Notes: generated from the sequence alone by a model not told the origin. Shown: positions 1 to 61,007, numbered from the whole stretch's first letter. The stretch: 62,579 bases of DNA, filler included, from Rhabdomonas costata (GCA_019059605.1; 27 parts of 27 records of this genome joined end to end with filler, not necessarily neighbours in it); one strand, 5' to 3'. Program-made: numbers and translations.

Positions 1-1257
1 AACCAAGGCCCTGGAAGGTCGCATGCCGCTTAGCCAACCTGCACACGGTAGTTGTTCCTCCTTCTGAACCGGATTATATTGTCAGACGGTTCGGCGGACC
101 AAATCCGTGGCTATACGTGGCCATAATGTCACGTGAAAAGCGCCCTGGGTGGTGTAACTCGGTTCCAGCGTGTTTGGACCACCAAAACGGAAGTAAAAAA
201 ATAAGGCCCCACCACCGCGTACTCTTATCAGAAACATGTTGATCGGTACCGGAACCCAGTTCGCCGGCCACTCGTCAGCAGCTCTGTTAGCGGAGGAGTG
301 GGGGTAAGCAAGTCGGGGTTTGTGCGCCCAAAAACCCCCTTCGAGGGGCTAAATGCGGAAATGCAATGGCGGGGTCCGTGGGTTCAGCCGTCATAGGTAG
401 AACGGCTGAGGCTTTGCAAGTGGTCCGCTGCTGGATCGGCGGCTTTGGCCACGCAAGCCGGCCAACCTCACGCACAACCAGAATCAGCGCAGACCAGGTC
501 TTTTCGGTCTCAGGTTGCCCGCTTCATCGCCTACGCACTGACTGTAACTTGTGCTGCTAGCCGGTGTATGTTTCAAACTTCCCTTGTTTTAAAAGCCTTC
601 GCCTGTCTTCCTCCTGCTATGGACAGAGTTAAAACGCGTTTGCCACCTTTGAGCGCCCGGTGCCGCAGAGAAAAAAAACCAGAACTTACTGTCTGAAACC
701 GCCCTCAGTTCGCAAAGAACAAACCACCATCCCCAAGCTTTGCTTGAATATGCGGAGTGGGAATGCGTATCCACAACATTCAACTGAAGCTTTGCTTGAA
801 TCCAACGTCCACGGCTGCTGCGGCTACGATTCGAGACACAACAGGCGACCACGGGATCCATCCCACTCTCAGATGCTCAGCAGAAAACGACGTACAACAA
901 TAGGAGGGACAATGCAGGATGAGTGTCCCAGGTTGTCCATGCCACTACAGAGAAGCTGATCCGGACCATACAACCACATAGTCCACCACAGGCGAACGCT
1001 ACGTAAGGGGCTCAGCTTCTCAGTCCATGATCCAACGGCCAACTACCTCCCCTTCCTCCTTTCTCCGGATAGGACGATAGCGGAAGGGAAGAGACACAAA
1101 GAAAGTGCTGAGGCTATCGGCATGCCAAAAAGGGACGGCAAACAACGGTAGACGGTGGAGTGACAGCAAACCACAACATACAGCATGGTAGTGTTGCGGT
1201 GGGGTCTTCCCAAATAATGACAGTGCACACCACGTGATGCCATGAACGACCCAGACA

Positions 1258-2323: not shown

Positions 2324-2583
2324 GGGTGTGTGGGTGAAACGGTTGCGATTGTTGCGGGCTACCAGTGGAATGTGTGCTTGCGTAGAACCCCCGAAAACAA
2401 CCCGCGACATCTGTTTTGCTGCTTTTTCTGGACTTTTGATGCTCTGCCCGGGACTGTCTGTATGGGGAATCCAGCGCGGTCATCATGGCCACGAAAGGCA
2501 TGCGGCACAACAGAGGCGCAAAGGCTGCCATTGTCACCGAGGGGCTGGTGTGTGACGCGCATGGGCACGAGCACGCGCAGTAC

Positions 2584-4447
2584 CGAAAGGCTACTCCAAT
2601 GCTCTCGTCGTAGCGCTGCAGCTCGTCCCACATCGCCATTGCATCCTCGACACGATTGTTCTCAATGTAAATCTGCAACCCACCAGAAAAGAACATTCCT
2701 CTCCCCCTGTCAACCCGGGGCGGACTTACCGATGTGTGTGTGTGTGTGTCTGTGTGCGTTTGTGAGTGAGTGAGTGAGTGAGTGAGTGAGTGAGAGTGAT
2801 TTTTGAGCACCTGCTGGGCCAAAGGAAAGTTCTGGTTTAGGATGGCCATCGCGGCCTGCACACTGAAGTGGGCGTAGCCGTTGACACGTTCCCGGCCCGC
2901 CTGCTGGGCAGCCTGCTCCGCAGAGGCCGCCAGGTCGTTGATCTCATTGAGTGCCCGGGCCTTCGCCACATCCCCTGCCCAACAAAAAAATACAAACCCC
3001 ACAGTGCTTAGCACAAGGCAGTGGGTTGGGGTGGGCTTCCTGGTCAACTTTTTTTCTCGGTCTTCTTCCCTTAGTTCTTTTTTTCTATTCCGGGCTGTGG
3101 TCATTGGGAAACCATATCATATATCGCCAAGGAGACACGTTTATTCGGATAACCCAGAAACCTGAAGCAAAGAGCTATATGATCTGAAAGACAGCAAGGC
3201 AAATAAACTAATAAAGGTACAGACACACACAGATAATCGTTTCGTAGTTCGTCAAAATCACCACACGATTACTGCATCATTGCCCAGAGAAACTTGATTA
3301 TGATCGACCTGCGACGGAGACGAAATTTAACAACATAAAAAACCAAAAAGGAGAAATCCCATGCAAATTTTTACCCCCCCCCCCCAAAAATATTCCTACA
3401 CAGGTTAACGTCGTCCGAAATTGGCAAAATTTTTTTCGCACAGTTATTTCCGCACTTATCTACATAAACGCGTCCACAGCGATAAAAATGGAAGGGAACA
3501 AGAGCCTGAGGGGAAATGTCCTCACCGGGGCAGTATGCTACAATTGCAAGATTGAAGCAAAGGCTCTGGATTAATGGTTTACATGCATGTTAAACCATGG
3601 GTTAGGGCCTGCCGACAAGAGCAGAGCGCAAAGGAGGGGGAACACGCTGCAGACCAAGGGCGGCGTAGCACCGCTCAGCAATGGTCATTCGGCCTTCCGC
3701 GGTGGCGACTCGAGAGAGGTGCATCCACATTGCTTCCGTCTCCGGAGTCAGTGCGATCTGCTCCAGCAGCTCGCACGCCCGCTCGTACTCCCTGCAGGGA
3801 AAAAGTTTGCATGGGGTTGGAGTGCGATATAATCTTGAGCAGATTATGATAATAAATAATGAGATTCATGTGACAGTGGGGACAAGTATTCCAACAGGGT
3901 GCCGCATCCCCTCCTGGCTGGATTACGCTCGCAGGAGAGGAGGAGAGGGTGGGGAAAGGCAAGTTCCTGTTGTCCATGGCGTTGCCGAACTCGATCAGGG
4001 CCTCATCCAGAAGGTAGGTCACGGTGTGCACCCCCTCGTCGACCACCACCTCAGTCTTGCCCGGGGTGCGCTCGATGTCCTCAACTTGGCCTTTGAGACA
4101 GAGAGAGAGACCGAGACAGAGAGCACTGCAGAGCGTTGCAGCCTCGCCGGAAAAGAAACCTGCCCCCTCGTCCGCCTAGTCCACTCAGCAATGACAATTC
4201 CATTGGTCCAAAGCTGAAAAACGTTACGACAATGCTAAACAATAGCTCCCCACCCAAACCCAGGGGCAATTGCCCACCAGTGGTGGGGAGGGCATCATGG
4301 GGTACCTTTGATGGGCACCACGGCCACTCGGTCGGGGTTTTCGATGGAGTACCACACGCACAGCTCGTTGCGGTTCTGCGCCACTGCGACGTCCGAATCG
4401 GGCACCCACTGCACGTAGGAGCAGTACGACAGCAGCGTCGTGCACAC
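2584..4447 (-). CDS. IFT172: Intraflagellar transport protein 172, internal fragment (5 exons)
   Basis: Exons 4447-4306, 4090-3967, 3791-3655, 2974-2811 and 2672-2584 join in phase: [132 protein letters not shown]. This is colinear with known IFT172. Intron 3792-3966 is GA-AG. Confidence 0.95.
2733..2793. repeat. Compound microsatellite (TG)n/(TGAG)n in an IFT172 intron
   Basis: Directly visible. Confidence 0.9.
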
Positions 4448-7400
4448 CTGCGAAAAGGCAATAAAAAAGGCACTCCTCCCGGTTCAACGCCTCGGTGTCT
4501 GGCATTACGAGGGTCAACACCTTCACGGTGTGCGGCAACACACAACANNNNNNNNNNNNNNNNNNNNNNNNNNNNNNNNNNNNNNNNNNNNTTAATTAAT
4601 TAANNNNNNNNNNNNNNNNNNNNNNNNNNNNNNNNNNNNNNNNNNNNGTGTTGTTGGGGGTGGCGAAACTAACACAACACTCTGCAACCCACTGCGTGCA
4701 AGAGCCGTGCCGGGCCCAGGCGGCGCACTAGCAAACTCGGAACCCCAGGGAGAACCGCTCACAGGCAAGTAGGTTGTCCCTTCATTTTATTTCACAACGG
4801 CGTCCCGTTGCTCCGCTTCGTTTCGGGAAACGCCCTGTTGGGGTTTAAAATAGTGCAGGAGACCACAAGGACTTAGAACCAGAATTTCAATTTTCACAGA
4901 CGGGTTTCACAGTCATAACAGAGAGGTCACAGAATATCCGGCCGAGACTGAAAATTGCCATCTACCCGTGAACAAAGCACTAGCATTGAACAAACGATGT
5001 CACCAGCGCGCAAGCGCACGAAAAGAGGTCCGATGCCGAAAACGAACACACGCACACACACACACACACACACACACCAACACATACTCGGGGCACCTTC
5101 TGGTATTCTCATCTATCTCGTCTACAATTGAGGCGGAGAGCTTCTTGAAGTTAAGAGAGAGAGGAGGAAAAGACCAAGGGTCTCCCGCTACCAGGAACGC
5201 AAGGGTAAAATGACCACATCAAACAGCATTACGGTTAAATTAAACAGAAAACTCACATGCGGGTCAGCAATGAGTGTGGGAGGTCGAAAACGTCAAAATG
5301 AAAATGCAAGCCCCGCGTCACCTTCGCGTCAGTGGCGAAGGTCGATTCCTACTGTGCCATTCCGACCGAAAAATCTGCGAACATGAAACTCTGACATGTC
5401 TTGGTGAACTTCACTTCACTTCAGAAACATAATAATCACCGGCATTGACTGGGAGATCTAAATGATTCCAATGGGAGAAACCACACTCTTTCCCATTGTG
5501 CGGAAAAGGTACACTAATCCGATTGCTCTGCTCAAATTGATCAAGAAGAGCGGCGTTTGGCACACCTTCTCAACTTCCGCAGGAGGTTCACTTCGGTGGT
5601 GAAGTCCAGTGCCCTTGCCATGTGCGGAAGGATGGGCGGTTGGGGAGTAAAGAGGGCAGGGAGGGCACGGAGAAAGTCACTGCACGAAGATGATGACGAG
5701 TGGCAAAAAACCGCTGTGTTCTTGTCAATCCAAAAATCACAATCATCTGCCCCCCACCCCCACCCCACCCCACACACACAAAAAGACGCGAGCCGTCCAC
5801 AATGGAGAAAGGAGTATGAGTTCAACGTCGCACACACTGTTGGCGCCTGATTGGGAGACCTGGGGAACCCAAGCCATCCACACGTGAGGGGTCGAAATTC
5901 CAAAAGACAGGGAATCTTGCAGAACCACCATTCCCAACCGGCCAATACAATACAATGCTACTCAATTTATTCAAATTCACACACAGGGGCAAAGTGGGTA
6001 CGGGAGGCGAACACCGTTGAAAAAAATGTGCGAGCACCTCGTTTTTGACCTGGTTTAATTTCCAAATAAGGGGTGACACAATTTCAAAAAAAATCCACAA
6101 CACGGGGTGCCACTTGTGGAAAATGTGTGTGTGTGGGGGGGGAGTACCAGTGCTAAACGTTCGTAAGTTTTGTGAACCCCGCTCCCGCTTCAATTCTGTC
6201 TGTCTGTCTGTCTAGAGAATGAAAACACTAGGAGGGCAGCACTGAACGTTTAACAGCGCGAAACGGAGCTTCGCCCAATCCCAATCCAACCGCCGTGGCG
6301 CTGGCCTTTGACACTAAATTTTATCGCAAACCTGTCTGCCAAAGCTCAGCAGCTGGAATTCCAAAAAAAAATAAATCCACAAAGCCAAAAACGGTTGGTA
6401 GTGACTAACGTTGAAAGCCCCCCCCACACACACAATTGTCCCCACTGGGGGCCACAGTTGTCTCACCACTTTAATTTTTTGAGTTTTCAGGCGGACACAA
6501 ATGTGGTTCATATTTGTGTCAGAATTCTAAAGAACAAAACAAAGCGAGTGAAAACCTTCTCGCAAATGGGTGAAAGACAAAACAAAGCACGAGCAAAGAG
6601 TCTTTGTACAATCCGAAGGAAAAACGCAAACATCAGTCCAGCACAGCGTGCAGAGAGAAATGCGACTGGTGACGACGGTGGCCACGGTGCAGGCGTACCA
6701 ATTCAAACGCAGCGTGTTCCAAATCGCACAACTGTCCTCTCTTGTATTCACAAAGCATCCGTCGTCGATGCCTGCAAACGGCTTTTGATGAGGCCGTGCC
6801 AACAGGATGAAAATGCGCGGGCGACACAGCAGCAGGAAGAGCAGAATAAACAATCACTTTATCCACAAAAACNNNNNNNNNNNNNNNNNNNNNNNNNNNN
6901 NNNNNNNNNNNNNNNNTTAATTAATTAANNNNNNNNNNNNNNNNNNNNNNNNNNNNNNNNNNNNNNNNNNNNATCAGCAGCCTGAGAGATAGTGGGAAGG
7001 AGGGAAGGAGGGAAGGAGGGCTTCGGCTATTTCAGAAGCAGCGCGTGGTATGACGGACGACGAAGAGCAATCACAACACGTGCGCACACTTCAGGGAAAG
7101 AAAAAGCAAAAAGCAAGCGGACGGCACACAGTGCGGTCCTGTAACAAAGCAAAGACCGACGACGAAGCAAGCAGCAGAAGGTATTCCTCATGGCGCGACA
7201 CCTGTACACCTTGGCAAGAAAGTGGGTGGGTTGAGTGGAACTTGAAACCAAACACCAGACCAATATCGACAATGACCTGTCGATAAGGCGAATCCATAAG
7301 ACACCATGGCACATTAAGAACCCCGGGGACGGGGGTGGGGGAAGAATGTACAATTGGGCGAAGTGGATGGGAGGGAACCCAGAATTGCTGGCTGAAACAT

Positions 7401-25443: not shown

Positions 25444-28240
25444 NNNNNNNNNNNNNNNNNNNNNNNNNNNNNNNNNNNNNNNNNNNNTTAATTAATTAAN
25501 NNNNNNNNNNNNNNNNNNNNNNNNNNNNNNNNNNNNNNNNNNNGGTGTGTGGTGTGATGTGTATATTTGTGTGCGATTCTTGTGGCGCAGGGTGTGTGTT
25601 GCGTTTAGTATGTGTGCACTGTATGTGTGCATGATTTTCTGTGTGCGCTTTTGTGTGTTTTTGTGTTGTTAATGTAGTTTTTCTGTTGTTTGATTTTGTG
25701 TTGAATGCGTGCATTGAATTTTTGTATGCTGTATGTACTATTATTTACTGAATTGGTTTTTACACGTGGTAAATGTGGACAAGTGACGAGTTCTGTTGTG
25801 CATATATAAAGTTGTTTACGCGTATCATTTTCTTAGTCAACCGTGACAATCTTATTTATCCATTTGGTGCGTATTTTGTGTGACCTAAAAGCAAATTATT
25901 AGTAGTATTTGCATACACGTTATCGCTAAAATGTTGAAGAGCGTGGATGCGAGTGACTGTACATGAACCCTAGAATGATTTCGTGACATATAAAGAGGCA
26001 TCGAATGCAGTAGCTACGACATAAGTAAACAATAGCATCGCGAGAACATACAAATATTGAGCTGAAGTGCAAATTTTACATAAACAAACATCGCATTTAG
26101 TATGAATATGTTTCTGATGTACAGTTTGGTAATCAGAGCGTGTCTACATGATCATATATGCTGACGTCGTTGAATTGAATTGTTAACCAAGAAGTGGCTT
26201 TGGACCTTGTGGATGATGTACTATTATGTGTGGTAATCATAATGTTGGTATGTCGTTGTTATTTTTATCACGTTTTTGCGATCTGTTGTTACTCAGCAAT
26301 ATCCCAGCACCATGTATACACTATTGCGGTTTGTATAAAACCTACTTAATAACATTTTTTGTCTGTGCGTGTGGTTGGTAGTAGCCTGGTGTCAACGCCA
26401 GTTTGTCTGCGCTGTTTGTAAACAGTATGATCCGAGCTACTATTGTGTTTATGCTGCAATGCTGATGACGATCAAGGAATGACAAAATACCCAATAGATA
26501 CAAACCTGGCTACAGACCTGGACACTCTACGCATATGTATATGCTATAATATAAAAATATATTTGGCATACATTCAGAAGTGAACTTTTTTTTAGGAAAC
26601 ATGCGCATTGCATACCAACACCCTGCGAGATGAAATATCCTGATCTATGTGGAATGTGTGTTGAAATATAAACGCTCCAACTTTGCTTGTGCGTTTGTGC
26701 ATTCTATTTTTGCTTGTATTGCTTCTGTGTGAAATGTGTAAGCAAACGCCTTGGTAGATGCAAGATATCCTAAACCGCACCTCCACGCTATCAAAAGGGT
26801 GTTTAAATCAGAGATCAATTCCAGCAGAAGCACCCAGCGCTAAACTCATCATGGGAATAATGTCGTGTGAAGAGAAGCTTTTTCAGCTTCCTTTATATGG
26901 GGCCGATTTGCAACTGGAGGAACCCAGGGTTTTGCATTCTTGCTATCATGTGGAAGTCTCTGTTCTCTAGATTTGCCTCTGCCTCTGAGTGAAATGCAAA
27001 TTGGTATTATAAATTTGACGCTTTACTAGTTCGAATCCCGAAAATATGAAGAATTGGAAGTCAACACCATAGCGTATAGTCAGTGCTGGCCGCTTCGCGT
27101 ACAGTCGACCATTTCATTTCGACTGGAACCGGGTGTAACCGTGCTTGAATATCCTTGATTATGATGTCTGTTGAGTGTCACTGGTAAAATGGGAATAAAC
27201 AGGCTGAAAGAGTCTCCGGGTATGCCAAGGGCTTTGCGGAAAACGGTAGTCACAGAGTCTTTAAAATCTTTCATGTGCGAACACTTTTCTTTTGCGGTGC
27301 CCTAGCCGACCCATCAACACTGCACCTAGGAGTTTCCAAAGAACAGTTTGCATTTGTGTGCTTTCGGCTCGAGAACTTTTCATTCAAGGTTTTCATCATT
27401 TGTGTGAACGCCCCGAAACAGTCCATACACAGAAACGCTTTGATAACATAGAGCATTGCCAAGCTCGTCATTTTCATATTAAGGCAAGGAGCCGCGGGTT
27501 TCAACAGGAATCGTTTAGATCATCCGTGACAGCTTTGGTAAGGTTGGCAATGTTGCGGAGAAGGGGCGGCCACGGCGGCCGAAACCTGTCGCACACCATT
27601 TCCAGATCGCGCGGGACATTCGCTTTCCCCATTTTTGCCATCACAACTAACTCTCTTCCAGCCTTGTGGTTTCTTTGTTCGCCCCCGCGCCTTTGTTGAA
27701 ATTTTTTTGGGGAAGTTCCTCCTTTAGAATCTGCTTCCTCGAACCCCTTTGCTGGCCCCCAAAACCNNNNNNNNNNNNNNNNNNNNNNNNNNNNNNNNNN
27801 NNNNNNNNNNTTAATTAATTAANNNNNNNNNNNNNNNNNNNNNNNNNNNNNNNNNNNNNNNNNNNNGTTTTTGTGTGAGGGCCGCCGACGGCCACCAATG
27901 ACTCATACGGCACGATCATAAGTGGCCGTCGGCGGCCCTCATTACAAAATCGCTGTGTTGAACAAAATCGTGTGTGTTTAGCCCAAGGCACGTTGGCCAC
28001 AGTGAAGATGATGCCTGATCATCTGGCCATCCCGTCTTCTGCGATGGTGAGCTGTGTATGTGCCCAAAGTCCGCTGGTAGGTGTGTTGCGTTCGGTTCGA
28101 GCGAACAATAGCTCACAAAAAGAAAAAGGTCAAGAATACGACAAATACACATAATGGCAAAAATGAATGAAATTCCGGTGGGTTGCTTCTGGAAAATTCT
28201 TCCCTCTCTTCATGACGCATGACGAAGGGGCGCTTGAGAC

Positions 28241-45828: not shown

Positions 45829-46765
45829 GTAAGCGTTCGTGCTGGGATTGTCTAGAAATGCGTGTGCGGAAATTTGCAACTTCAGCAGGTTGGATGTTAA
45901 TCGGCGAAATCGGCAAAAACGGGACTCCCAAGAACACTCGCATTAGGACCCACCTATCAACAGGGAGTGTGCACGCACTGGGGCCCGCGTAGAGAGGGCG
46001 ATGCGCACATCTCCGGAAGGGCACATCTGTGACTTTGTTATTATATGGTCACGTCGTCCGGCACGGCAGTTTCAGCACTCGTGGACGCTCAGCTGCGGCG
46101 TTGACATCTCCTCATTACCTTATCCTGTCAACTAAGGCTGCAGCTTTCGCAAGTACACAGATACAACCATACCCCACCCCCCGTGATGCGGCCGACCGTC
46201 CCGAGCCACCCAATAGACTTCGGTCCTTTTCGGAGAGAGTCCAGCGCAGAAACATGCACAGACAGATCGAGGAGAGCAAGGCGCACCAATCCATCACCGA
46301 GTTTCTGTGGAGCAGATGTTTTTTAAGATAAGTGAGACNNNNNNNNNNNNNNNNNNNNNNNNNNNNNNNNNNNNNNNNNNNNTTAATTAATTAANNNNNN
46401 NNNNNNNNNNNNNNNNNNNNNNNNNNNNNNNNNNNNNNGCTGTCTTCTTGGAAGTGGAGATTACCGTTCTACTGCTGGCGGTCACACACACATGTGGGCA
46501 AGACTGCCTTTTTCTGGAGATAAAAAAACACAATTACCTCAACAGGTAATTTTCAAAAAGCAACCAAAGAGCAACACACAATCACGCACACACGCTCAAG
46601 CACCACGTGCACAGCAACATCTATGTGGAGAAATACGGGACCAAGATTGCGCTTTTTCTCAGTGGATGGTATGTATGTGAAATGTTTGTCCCCTGGAATG
46701 CACACATGCCACTTGCATCATCAGACGAACACACCAGCATTCTATCGATGTACATCCATGCTCAG

Positions 46766-48402
46766 GGTACCTGCCAGCCCTGTACCGGGGGCCTGGTGTA
46801 CAGCGAAAGCCCTGCCGGGGGGCGGTGCGGACCTCCTGCACCCTCGATGTGGTGGGTCGCTCTGGTCACCGCGTTGCCCGTGGGGTTCGCCGTGCTGTTG
46901 CTGACCGCACTTGGGGTGGCCCTTGTGAGGAGGCTGGCAACGCGGCGGAGACTGCTACAGGCCGTGCCGCAAGGCGAGCTGGCGTTTGTGTTCACAGGTG
47001 TTTGCACTGTCAAACGCTCAGTTGCAAAACGAAGCATATCTCCATCAATCGTTGAGAGGCCCCGTCCTCACCTTTCTTTTTTTGAATGGTTCTCACTCGT
47101 ATGCTTTGATCAGAAGACGAAACGACGTGCTGGCAGAGGTCCTTCAAAAATTCATGCATTACTGGCATTCTGTGCTTGTCTGCATAGGATTCTCGGTTCC
47201 AATTGCAAAGCAGCATTACCTACATTAGCCCGGTGGATTGTCTCCGCTCCAGTCGCGCCGCGGCGATTACAAACGGGCTGTTTCCACTTTGCATATGTCA
47301 AGCACTCACCTGTTATTTCAAATCCTCTGCTCCTTTACTTCCTATTTTTTTCTACTCTGGGGGAACAAACGCCACGCCAGCTGCGGCTTAAGAACGATAC
47401 TCGGAAAGCAAGGGTGTGGGTGTGGGTGTGCGCGCCAAATGTGAGCCTTTCCAGTAGCTGTGACTGTAAAAAGCATGTTCATATCCACCACCATCAACTT
47501 CCATTTGTTACTTGTTTCCCACGCCTCGGTCTGGCTAGTTTCCTTTTTGCTCTGTTTTACAATGTCTTGCTCGCTCTTTGCGTCGTGGCGGTCTCATCTG
47601 TCCTTTTCTTTCCCTCTTTTTGTTCGCCCGTGTGCCGGCCCACCCCAGATATCCAGAACTCGACTCACTTGTGGGAAAGCTACCCAGAGATGTCTCGGGC
47701 CTTGGAGGTCCACAACACCGTTGTGCGGGAGCTGATCTATCGCTTTGGTACGTGCAACTGAGCCCCTCCCTCATTCAGCTCAGCAATCGCTGGTTCTAGT
47801 AGAAACTATGAGGAATTGTGCCGAGAACGTTTTGCAGATGCCTACGAACCCATGCTCCACGAGCCAAGTGAACTTCGTTGAAACCTGTACAAATGTGCAA
47901 GAACGGCCTGAATTGCTTTCTGACCACAGCCTATTACTAACCGCCACGAACAAATACCATGCCCAAATCTCTGTCTTTCACCACCTTACTGGCGCGGGCT
48001 CTTCATTTGGGCTGCGTTCCCTGTCCCTTTCAACCTCCTTTACGCATCACCGTTGTGTTCGGGTGCACGAGCAGCTGACCCGCCTCTGATTTTTTTGATT
48101 CCTGAGCACGGCGTGTTCACAACCTTCTTGACGCATACCATCCCCATAAAGGGGGGTACGAGGTGAAAACCATCGGCGACAGCTTCTTCGTTGCCTTCCC
48201 GGACGTCCCCAGTGCGGTGCGGTTCGCTCTGCAGCTGCAGCTGGAGATGATGACCGCGGATTGGCCGGAGAGTCTGCTGGGGCTCCCGGACGGGCTGCAG
48301 GAGCTGAGCCCCACGGGGGGCCTGATGTGGCGTGGGCTGAGGGTGAGGGTGGGAATTCATCTGGGGGTGGCCAAGGTTGAGGTCGACTACAACACGCTGA
48401 AG
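46766..48402 (+). CDS. Receptor-type (single-TM) class III adenylate cyclase, euglenozoan type (3 exons)
   Basis: Exons 46766-46997, 47649-47747 and 48152-48402 give a Cys-rich ectodomain end, a TM helix (WWVALVTALPVGFAVLLLTALGVALV), then AFVFTDIQNSTHLWE..HNTVVRELI..GYEVKTIGDSFFVAF..WRGLRVRVGIHLG. Confidence 0.93.
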
Positions 48403-48992
48403 GTCAGTCCTTTGCGCCCCTCACAACCCAAAAACTGCCTGATCGCTGTGGTTGAACGACAACCCTGGTCGACATATGACAGGACACTATGCGCGATGGC
48501 TGCAAAGAACAGGAACTTTTTCAGTAAAAATGTTGAAAATTGAATACAGCCCGGGGACCGATGGAAATTGTGCGGGTGGGAGTGGTTACGGTTACCACTG
48601 GTAACAGAAAACTCCCTCGAAACACCCACGAAATGAAAAATTTGTGTAAGGGGGTAAGCTTTNNNNNNNNNNNNNNNNNNNNNNNNNNNNNNNNNNNNNN
48701 NNNNNNTTAATTAATTAANNNNNNNNNNNNNNNNNNNNNNNNNNNNNNNNNNNNNNNNNNNNTGGTTTGGGTGGTAGTGCCCGCTTGCCCCGAGCGCTCC
48801 GCATGGAGGAAACATTTCAATCTTTCCTGATTCACTCCGCTTCGCTGTTTTTACAGCTTGAGAAGCAGCAGCGGGCGGCAAAGCAGTTGACGGACAGACT
48901 CGTGCAGAGATTAATAGTAACGGGTGGCCTGGCTGGGGGCCGGCATAAAAGCTGCACCCTTTGCCGTTGTGCCGGTCAGGATGAGCCAGTGA

Positions 48993-60260: not shown

Positions 60261-61007
60261 NNNNNNNNNNNNNNNNNNNNNNNNNNNNNNNNNNNNNNNN
60301 NNNNTTAATTAATTAANNNNNNNNNNNNNNNNNNNNNNNNNNNNNNNNNNNNNNNNNNNNTTTTGCAGCTGCGACCCTGCAGGTCTGAAATCGTGTACTT
60401 GAAGTAAAGCAAAAGTGAGCAGGCAAAATTTTGGTGCAAAGGAATTCTTGATCACCCCTGGGAGCACGGTGTGGGTTGCTTGGCGAATCCTGCTTCCAAA
60501 CCTTCCACCTAACGGTGATGCCATGAACGGCTTACCAACTTTCCCTGCAGGGTCGCAGCTGCAAAAGTTTCATCTCACACGCAACTACAGAGAGTCCTGC
60601 TCACCTCGAGGATATCCCGTGTCCGCGGCGACCGGCTGCTGATCCGCCAGCAAACTGGCGGCGCTAAATGAACAAGGCAAAAAGGGGCAATGGAGGAGGA
60701 CAACTTTTCGGGGACTACGTACGTGTGCTTGTATGGCAATGCGTCACCCTAAAAAGAGATGGCCACAGAAACCGTGCACAATGTAAGCGCCGCTTACCGT
60801 TACGTCTTCTCGACTTGTTGGAGAACACGAGGTGAGAGAGATTGAGAGACAGCGGACTGAGCCAAAAGACAGAAATGTTATTGCCAGTTCCACCTCAAAA
60901 GAAAGAGGAGAAAAAACTGCTTAACAAAACGGAAGCTTTTGTACTTAGAGGGATAGGTATCAGGAACAGTAAAAAAAAAAGTCTCACTTCGGAAACCTCA
61001 CCCATAC

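Follow-up and report, generated by a model that had tools for sequence, protein, structure and literature searches.

The IFT172 gene of Rhabdomonas costata probably contains a real, spliced spliceosomal intron with GA-AG borders. It is found on the minus strand in positions 3792..3966, between two exons which are joined precisely in a full-length protein. The A at 3965, the second base of this intron, rests on one contig of a fragmented amplified draft: the reality of the GA donor hinges on that base.

The IFT172 contig

We will start with the organization of the window, by which we mean the whole stretch of 62,579 nucleotides that was analysed, filler included. It is a pseudo-scaffold and not one locus: 27 stretches of 2217-2225 bp each are split by identical N44-TTAATTAATTAA-N44 linkers. 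The linkers are found at 2224-2323, 4548-4647 and so on up to 60261-60360, and have the form of a six-frame stop spacer. Since the contigs are independent, genes on either side of a linker have no physical linkage.

The search with exon C retrieves a full-length protein of 1735 aa (EukProt id RCo051951, P0002 in what follows) at 100% identity. An exact 5-mer map of P0002 in all six frames of the whole window has long runs in contig 2 only, and the remainder of the IFT172 gene is absent from the window. The features of contig 2 are as follows; residues are numbered as in P0002 and a slash marks a splice border.

2324..4547, minus strand: contig 2, 2224 bp, IFT172 residues about 534-753, from the linker structure and the 5-mer map
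4306..4447, minus strand: IFT172 exon A, from about V535 to the first base of G582; its 5' border is placed from CAG/GTG
4091..4305, minus strand: intron A/B, 215 nt, GT-AG placement AAAG/GTACCC...TCAAAG/G
3967..4090, minus strand: IFT172 exon B, 124 nt, from G582 to the first two bases of R623
3792..3966, minus strand: intron B/C with GA-AG borders in the assembly, 175 nt, ACAG/GAACTTGCC...CTTTTTCCCTGCAG/GGAG
3965, minus strand: base +2 of intron B/C, A; a T there would give the ordinary donor GTACTT
3655..3791, minus strand: IFT172 exon C, 137 nt, from the last base of R623 to the first base of G669
2975..3654, minus strand: intron C/D, 680 nt, GT-AG
2811..2974, minus strand: IFT172 exon D, which ends at Q723 and carries the difference at residue 690
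2673..2810, minus strand: intron D/E, 138 nt, GT-AG
2584..2672, minus strand: IFT172 exon E, from I724 to R753, followed by the GT donor TTTCG/GTACTG; the next exon is outside the contig

Homology agrees with the first-pass annotation in assigning the gene to IFT172. Exons B and C match residues 567-608 (E 5.4e-10) and 611-656 (E 6.9e-12) of Chlamydomonas IFT172 (PDB 8bd7_S), the matches are collinear across exons and between these two there is exactly the split R codon, with zero gap. Over 1689 aligned positions P0002 shares 45-46% identity with three IFT172 proteins of Trypanosoma, and these proteins also align over the exon B/C junction without a gap.

Across this junction P0002 is identical to the contig: NAMDNREYERAC. 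In all the exons of contig 2 there is one difference in about 219 residues, approximately 1 per 660 coding nt. It is found at residue 690 (minus strand, codon about 2912-2910, exon D), which is A in the genome and V in P0002; two alleles may be behind it, or a mistake made in amplification or sequencing. P0002 is presumably derived from transcripts: the proteins of R. costata were predicted from the transcriptome only, the genome being judged unfit for gene prediction (PMC8219788), and for this reason we take P0002 as evidence of the junction at the mRNA level. The evidence is that of a protein sequence, not of transcript nucleotides.

A GT-AG placement is present in the three other complete introns of contig 2 (3/3). 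Intron A/B has a direct repeat TCAAAGG at both junctions and therefore 9 equivalent placements; the repeat exceeds the usual AG/G overlap.

Two other contigs have features of their own. Contig 21 (46439-48662, plus strand, 2224 bp) contains exons of a class III adenylate/guanylate cyclase, with a stretch of hydrophobic residues that is likely to span the membrane. The exons read ...ELAFVFT/DIQNSTHLWE...RFG/GYEVKTIGDSFFVAF...RVGIHLG. Their junctions were placed by eye from the sequence and from what we take to be the cyclase motifs:

46997..47648, plus strand: GT-AG intron of contig 21
47750..48152, plus strand: GT-AG intron of contig 21
48404, plus strand: a further GT donor of contig 21

Within the part modelled, contig 21 has GT-AG introns only and no second GA-AG intron. 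A search of proteins with a length of 2000 aa or less did not recover the transcript protein of this cyclase; the best paralogue in R. costata has 47% identity. Contig 12 (25544-27766) stands out by its GC content, 41.5%, well below the 49-55% of all the rest (26 contigs); an organelle, a repeat or contaminating DNA could be its source. An Rfam search of the whole window gave 0 matches and no snRNA, and a 19-nt piece of the published spliced leader has 0 matches in the window.

Borders and type of the intron

Exon B, read on the minus strand, ends in ...GACAACAG (GAC AAC AG) at 3967. The intron begins with G at 3966 and A at 3965 and ends with A at 3793 and G at 3792; exon C begins at G 3791 and reads G GAG TAC. 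The intron starts with GAACTTGCC and ends with CTTTTTCCCTGCAG, in which a pyrimidine tract is followed by AG. These are the borders of the 175-nt intron that had been described in the first-pass annotation, GA-AG in the assembly, and the 175 nt are absent from P0002 at this place. The junction DNR/EYER, which had been presented as a gap-free match to IFT172, is found identical in P0002 and is aligned without a gap by the Chlamydomonas and Trypanosoma proteins. Keeping the 175 nt (3x58+1) would shift the reading frame.

We have enumerated every donor/acceptor pair that reproduces P0002 exactly; the number of such placements is a property of the sequence and not a statistic. There are five, all of 175 nt: CA-TG, AG-GC, GG-CA, GA-AG and AA-GG. 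They are due to the repetition of CAGG at both ends of the intron, which had already been pointed out, and they slide along this repeat. None of the five is GT-AG or GC-AG, which holds only if the assembly base at 3965 is right. GA-AG is the sole placement with a 3' AG behind the pyrimidine tract. It had also been remarked that there is no in-phase GT nearby: indeed the first 40 nt or so of the intron side have none, and no in-frame alternative is found.

Other ways of obtaining the same protein were considered and rejected. With a GC donor 6 nt downstream the product would be DNRNLEYER, a cDNA reading that the first-pass annotation itself had named as an outcome which would speak against a GA donor. 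P0002 reads DNREYER, which rules out the GC donor for that transcript, and the GC product would have two extra residues when compared with Chlamydomonas and the three Trypanosoma IFT172 proteins. A reverse-transcriptase template switch at CAGG is unlikely, since removal of the 175 nt yields a conserved protein that has no gap.

As to its type, the intron is precisely removed from the mature mRNA, as judged at the protein level from DNREYER in P0002. Its 3' end is that of a conventional U2-type intron, an AG behind a pyrimidine tract (CTTTTTCCCTGCAG/G). At its 5' end the conventional GT or GC is replaced by GA (3966-3965), in the context of the GA-AG subclass, with an exonic AG and an A at +3 (ACAG/GAAC). 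A U12-type intron was rejected: the start GAACTTGCC is unlike the U12-type 5' splice site, which we take to be RTATCCTT-like.

Euglenids commonly have introns with noncanonical borders (PMC11170887, PMC12501133), and one may ask if this is a nonconventional or intermediate euglenid intron, removed independently of the spliceosome and with borders that are ambiguous through the CAGG repeat. Its borders are indeed neither GT-AG nor GC-AG and are ambiguous over five positions. Introns of such kind have been classed as 'ss-variant' nonconventional in E. gracilis (PMC11170887), and at least seven candidates for nonconventional introns are known from R. costata (PMC8219788). We nevertheless find this explanation very improbable. 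The signature of Euglena nonconventional introns, 5'-N3CDG ... CH'GN5-6/R, comes from knock-in work in Euglena agilis / E. gracilis (PMC12501133), and it is absent in all five placements: the triplets at +4..+6 are GAA, AAC, ACT, CTT and TTG, none of them CDG, and those at the 3' end with a spacer of 5 or 6 are TTT, TTC, TCC, CCC and CCT, with no complementary CHG. The absence of the Euglena CAG(+4..6) motif, first noted for a single placement of the borders, is thus extended to all five. In the terminal-pairing fold test that has been used for E. gracilis introns (PMC11170887), here with 10 nt + U7 + 10 nt, the intron gives 0 to -2.6 kcal/mol; this is weaker than the -4.5 and -6.6 kcal/mol of two GT-AG introns of contig 2, in a test which is noisy and on a small sample. 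When compared by eye, the intron has neither the /GC start nor the long complementary ends of the seven R. costata candidates (Table S6 of PMC8219788). The pyrimidine tract and the AG also speak against it, and CAGG on both sides amounts to no more than the usual AG/G at exon ends. From these features we infer that the intron is not a euglenid nonconventional intron.

In the reading that we prefer, it would be a conventional U2-type spliceosomal intron with GA as a donor in the place of GT: AG/GAAC, a pyrimidine tract and CAG/G. The normal spliceosome would recognise it despite the A at +2, and both the CAG/G match at the exon end and the A at +3 would favour this, like in the GA-AG introns of other eukaryotes. 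The GA donor would most likely have arisen from a GTAC-type donor through a T>A change. Ordinary spliceosomal removal of a GA-donor intron appears to be the most economical mechanism.

Relatives of this region were also searched for. A 108-aa ORF in a 923-bp contig (P0001) has 96% identity over exon C. It is a genomic read-through ORF: its coding likeness extends from the same acceptor to the same exon C donor, with the GT retained. Its intron sequence has diverged from that of the window, and it stops short of the position of the GA donor. P0001 comes from a close relative of the organism of the window, which shares both intron positions that flank exon C. A scan of the JGI metagenomes with exon C gave 593 pattern matches and no relative. 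With exon B we obtained a single protein (64% identity) in the 90%-clusters of proteins of 40-130 aa, and 235 matches in a search of representatives, the best of them about 74% identical; no close relative was among them.

An old and widely shared intron position was rejected, as many of 15 IFT172 fragments read straight through the site. In four short ORFs from public assemblies, of one other eukaryote lineage (P0059, P0062, P0068 and P0075), coding stops at ...FGSALDDL and continues as VS/VR. They seem to have a GT donor in phase 0, placed one nucleotide further downstream than the R623 split; either two intron positions nearly coincide here, or one position has slid by 1 nt.

The base at 3965 and the published intron calls

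The window presumably stems from the R. costata draft of Soukal et al. 2021 (PMC8219788), a SPAdes assembly of DNA from sorted cells amplified with the WGA4 kit, which is PCR-based. The draft has an N50 of 1194 bp, an estimated coverage of 10-20x and 51.6% GC (PMC8219788). A peculiarity of the contigs in the window is found at their ends: 15 of the 27 start with at least 90% G/T and 17 of the 27 end with at least 90% A/C, a level which is reached by 1.4% of the internal 12-mers. In contig 2 the first 12-mer (2324-2335) is pure G/T and the last one (4536-4547) pure A/C. Such G/T starts and A/C ends are typical remnants of the degenerate primers of the GenomePlex chemistry. The contig ends are probably untrimmed tails of degenerate amplification primers and not genomic sequence. 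Contig 2 may derive from few amplified molecules, and with its primer-like tails an early amplification error could sit in every read at 3965; read support at this base is a weaker check than the first-pass annotation had assumed. Only two contigs of 2224 bp are present in the intron tables of PMC8219788, and their SPAdes labels give coverages of 0.84 and 0.73; should contig 2 be either of these, its coverage would be very thin.

It may be, then, that the true donor is GTACTT, that the intron is GT-AG and that the A at 3965 is an error of the amplification polymerase, of sequencing or of the assembly. We consider this a possibility of some weight, on the unlikely side. The PCR-based amplification from sorted cells, the very fragmented assembly, the tails at the contig ends and the coverage labels below 1 all speak in its favour, as does the one amino acid mismatch between contig and P0002. 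The other donors of contig 2 are GTACCC, GTCTGC, GTGCTC and GTACTG: two of the four start with GTAC, and one T>A step from GTACTT gives exactly the GAACTT of the intron. Furthermore, the 29 complete introns which were checked by hand in six R. costata genes are all GT/AG (29/29, PMC8219788). If there is an amplification error, the case is a caution on single-base splice-site variants taken from amplified and thinly covered drafts.

The published intron tables of R. costata weigh on the other side. The exonerate introns are given in supplementary file 6 of PMC8219788, and we have estimated the frequency of GA-AG by counting border strings throughout this file. We assume that each noncanonical intron is found in Tables S2 and S3, and some of them also in S5, which fits the parity of most counts. 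The strings GAAG and CTTC are found 90 and 95 times, with 4 and 1 rows in S5, which gives about 43+47 = 90 GA-AG calls. The approximate number of calls among the 11,418 putative introns of PMC8219788 is:

GA-AG: about 90 calls
GT-GG: about 69 calls
GT-TG: about 61 calls
GT-AA: about 53 calls
TT-AG: about 46 calls
GG-AG: about 45 calls
GT-AT: about 45 calls
AT-AG: about 40 calls

GA-AG is the commonest single-base variant counted in these tables, eight others having about 40-69 calls each; every such class is about 0.35-0.8% of the exonerate table, which is a noisy background (PMC8219788). In Table S5, which has 26 RNA-read-supported cases with homologues, 5 are GA-AG (GAAG four times and CTTC once), compared with 1 each for AT-AG, GT-AA, GT-GG and GT-AT; some of the 26 are dubious, with bacterial best matches (PMC8219788). 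Of these classes AT-AG, GT-AA and GT-GG are transition changes from GT-AG. As polymerase errors, transitions are expected to be commoner than other changes. If the errors were random, T>A should not be favoured over transitions, and a genuine GA-AG class in R. costata is therefore likely. The rate of errors leads in the same direction: with about 1 mismatch per 660 nt, one specific substitution at a given base has a frequency of about 10^-4 to 10^-3, which is lower than the apparent frequency of GA-AG.

A different possibility is that the GA allele is real and is poorly spliced or not spliced, the mRNA of P0002 coming from a GT allele that was missed by the thin assembly. The A/V difference at residue 690 between genome and P0002 could be allelic, and a thin and fragmented assembly would sample one allele only. 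We find this improbable: the recurrence of GA-AG among RNA-supported junctions is simpler to understand if GA donors are functional.

The authors of the draft kept seven nonconventional candidates after manual inspection, and the GA-AG cases are not among them (PMC8219788). We found no discussion of GA-AG introns in the main text of this article as available, and the words 'Intraflagellar' and 'IFT172' have zero occurrences in the available text of its six supplementary files. A full-text literature search found no paper which treats euglenid GA-AG introns by title or abstract.

The IFT172 intron itself has no certain match to any row of the available intron tables of PMC8219788. One contig, NODE_5194_length_2224, has only two introns, GAAG and GTAG, with the transcript TR1005; the best blastx match of TR1005 is an Acytostelium hypothetical protein (6e-12) and not IFT172. 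Another, NODE_5223_length_2224, has CTAC three times with TR1522, which fits the three minus-strand GT-AG introns of contig 2, with no fourth entry (PMC8219788).

The first-pass annotation had considered a GA donor in a euglenozoan housekeeping gene as notable. Its novelty was overstated in view of the roughly 90 tabulated calls and of the noncanonical borders that are commonplace in euglenids: GA-AG is a known minor splice-site variant, which is present and undiscussed in the published tables of R. costata (PMC8219788, in the parts available).

Comparison with known GA-AG and nonconventional introns

If the IFT172 intron is real, it is a clean example of a euglenid GA-AG intron, in a conserved gene, with a junction that homology defines unambiguously and with cDNA support. 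Together with the published and undiscussed entries it would suggest that the euglenid spliceosome tolerates an A at +2 more often than that of most eukaryotes. It would bear on the coexistence of conventional and nonconventional splicing in Euglenozoa, and it would matter for gene modelling in euglenozoan genomes, where donor-agnostic aligners would be needed. A more general idea, which we put forward tentatively and with more doubt than confidence, is that R. costata, and perhaps heterotrophic euglenids widely, keep a genuine minor spliceosomal GA-AG class of a few per thousand introns, with AG/GAA context, even in housekeeping genes such as IFT172 and distinct from the nonconventional introns. 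Such a class would imply a relaxed or variant recognition of +2 by U1/U6, as has been proposed for copepods, Oikopleura and dinoflagellates.

The closest comparison is with the published GA-AG calls of R. costata, which share with our intron the border type, the type of draft and, presumably, the species (PMC8219788). With the nonconventional introns of euglenids it has in common that the borders are not GT-AG and that a short direct repeat makes them ambiguous (PMC12501133, PMC11170887).

In humans GA is a rare 5' splice site, the order of usage being GC > TT > AT > GA > GG > CT (PMC6280755, PMC7072748). The GA 5' splice sites of human FGFR demonstrate that the U2-type spliceosome uses GA in a supportive context (PMC6280755, PMC7072748). 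However, use of the FGFR site reportedly requires a canonical site that lies 6 nt upstream of it (PMC7072748), whereas the IFT172 intron has no GT in its first 40 nt or so and no in-frame alternative.

In the copepod Eurytemora affinis and the tunicate Oikopleura dioica, from a few percent up to about 12% of the introns have GA donors (PMC5714493, PMC7072748); in R. costata GA-AG reaches at most about 0.8% of the calls, in a noisy table (PMC8219788). The GA-AG introns of these two species have an exonic AG, an A at +3 and an ordinary 3' AG, and they are supported by RNA (PMC7072748). The IFT172 intron, CAG/GAAC...CAG/G, is alike in its AG/GAA context.
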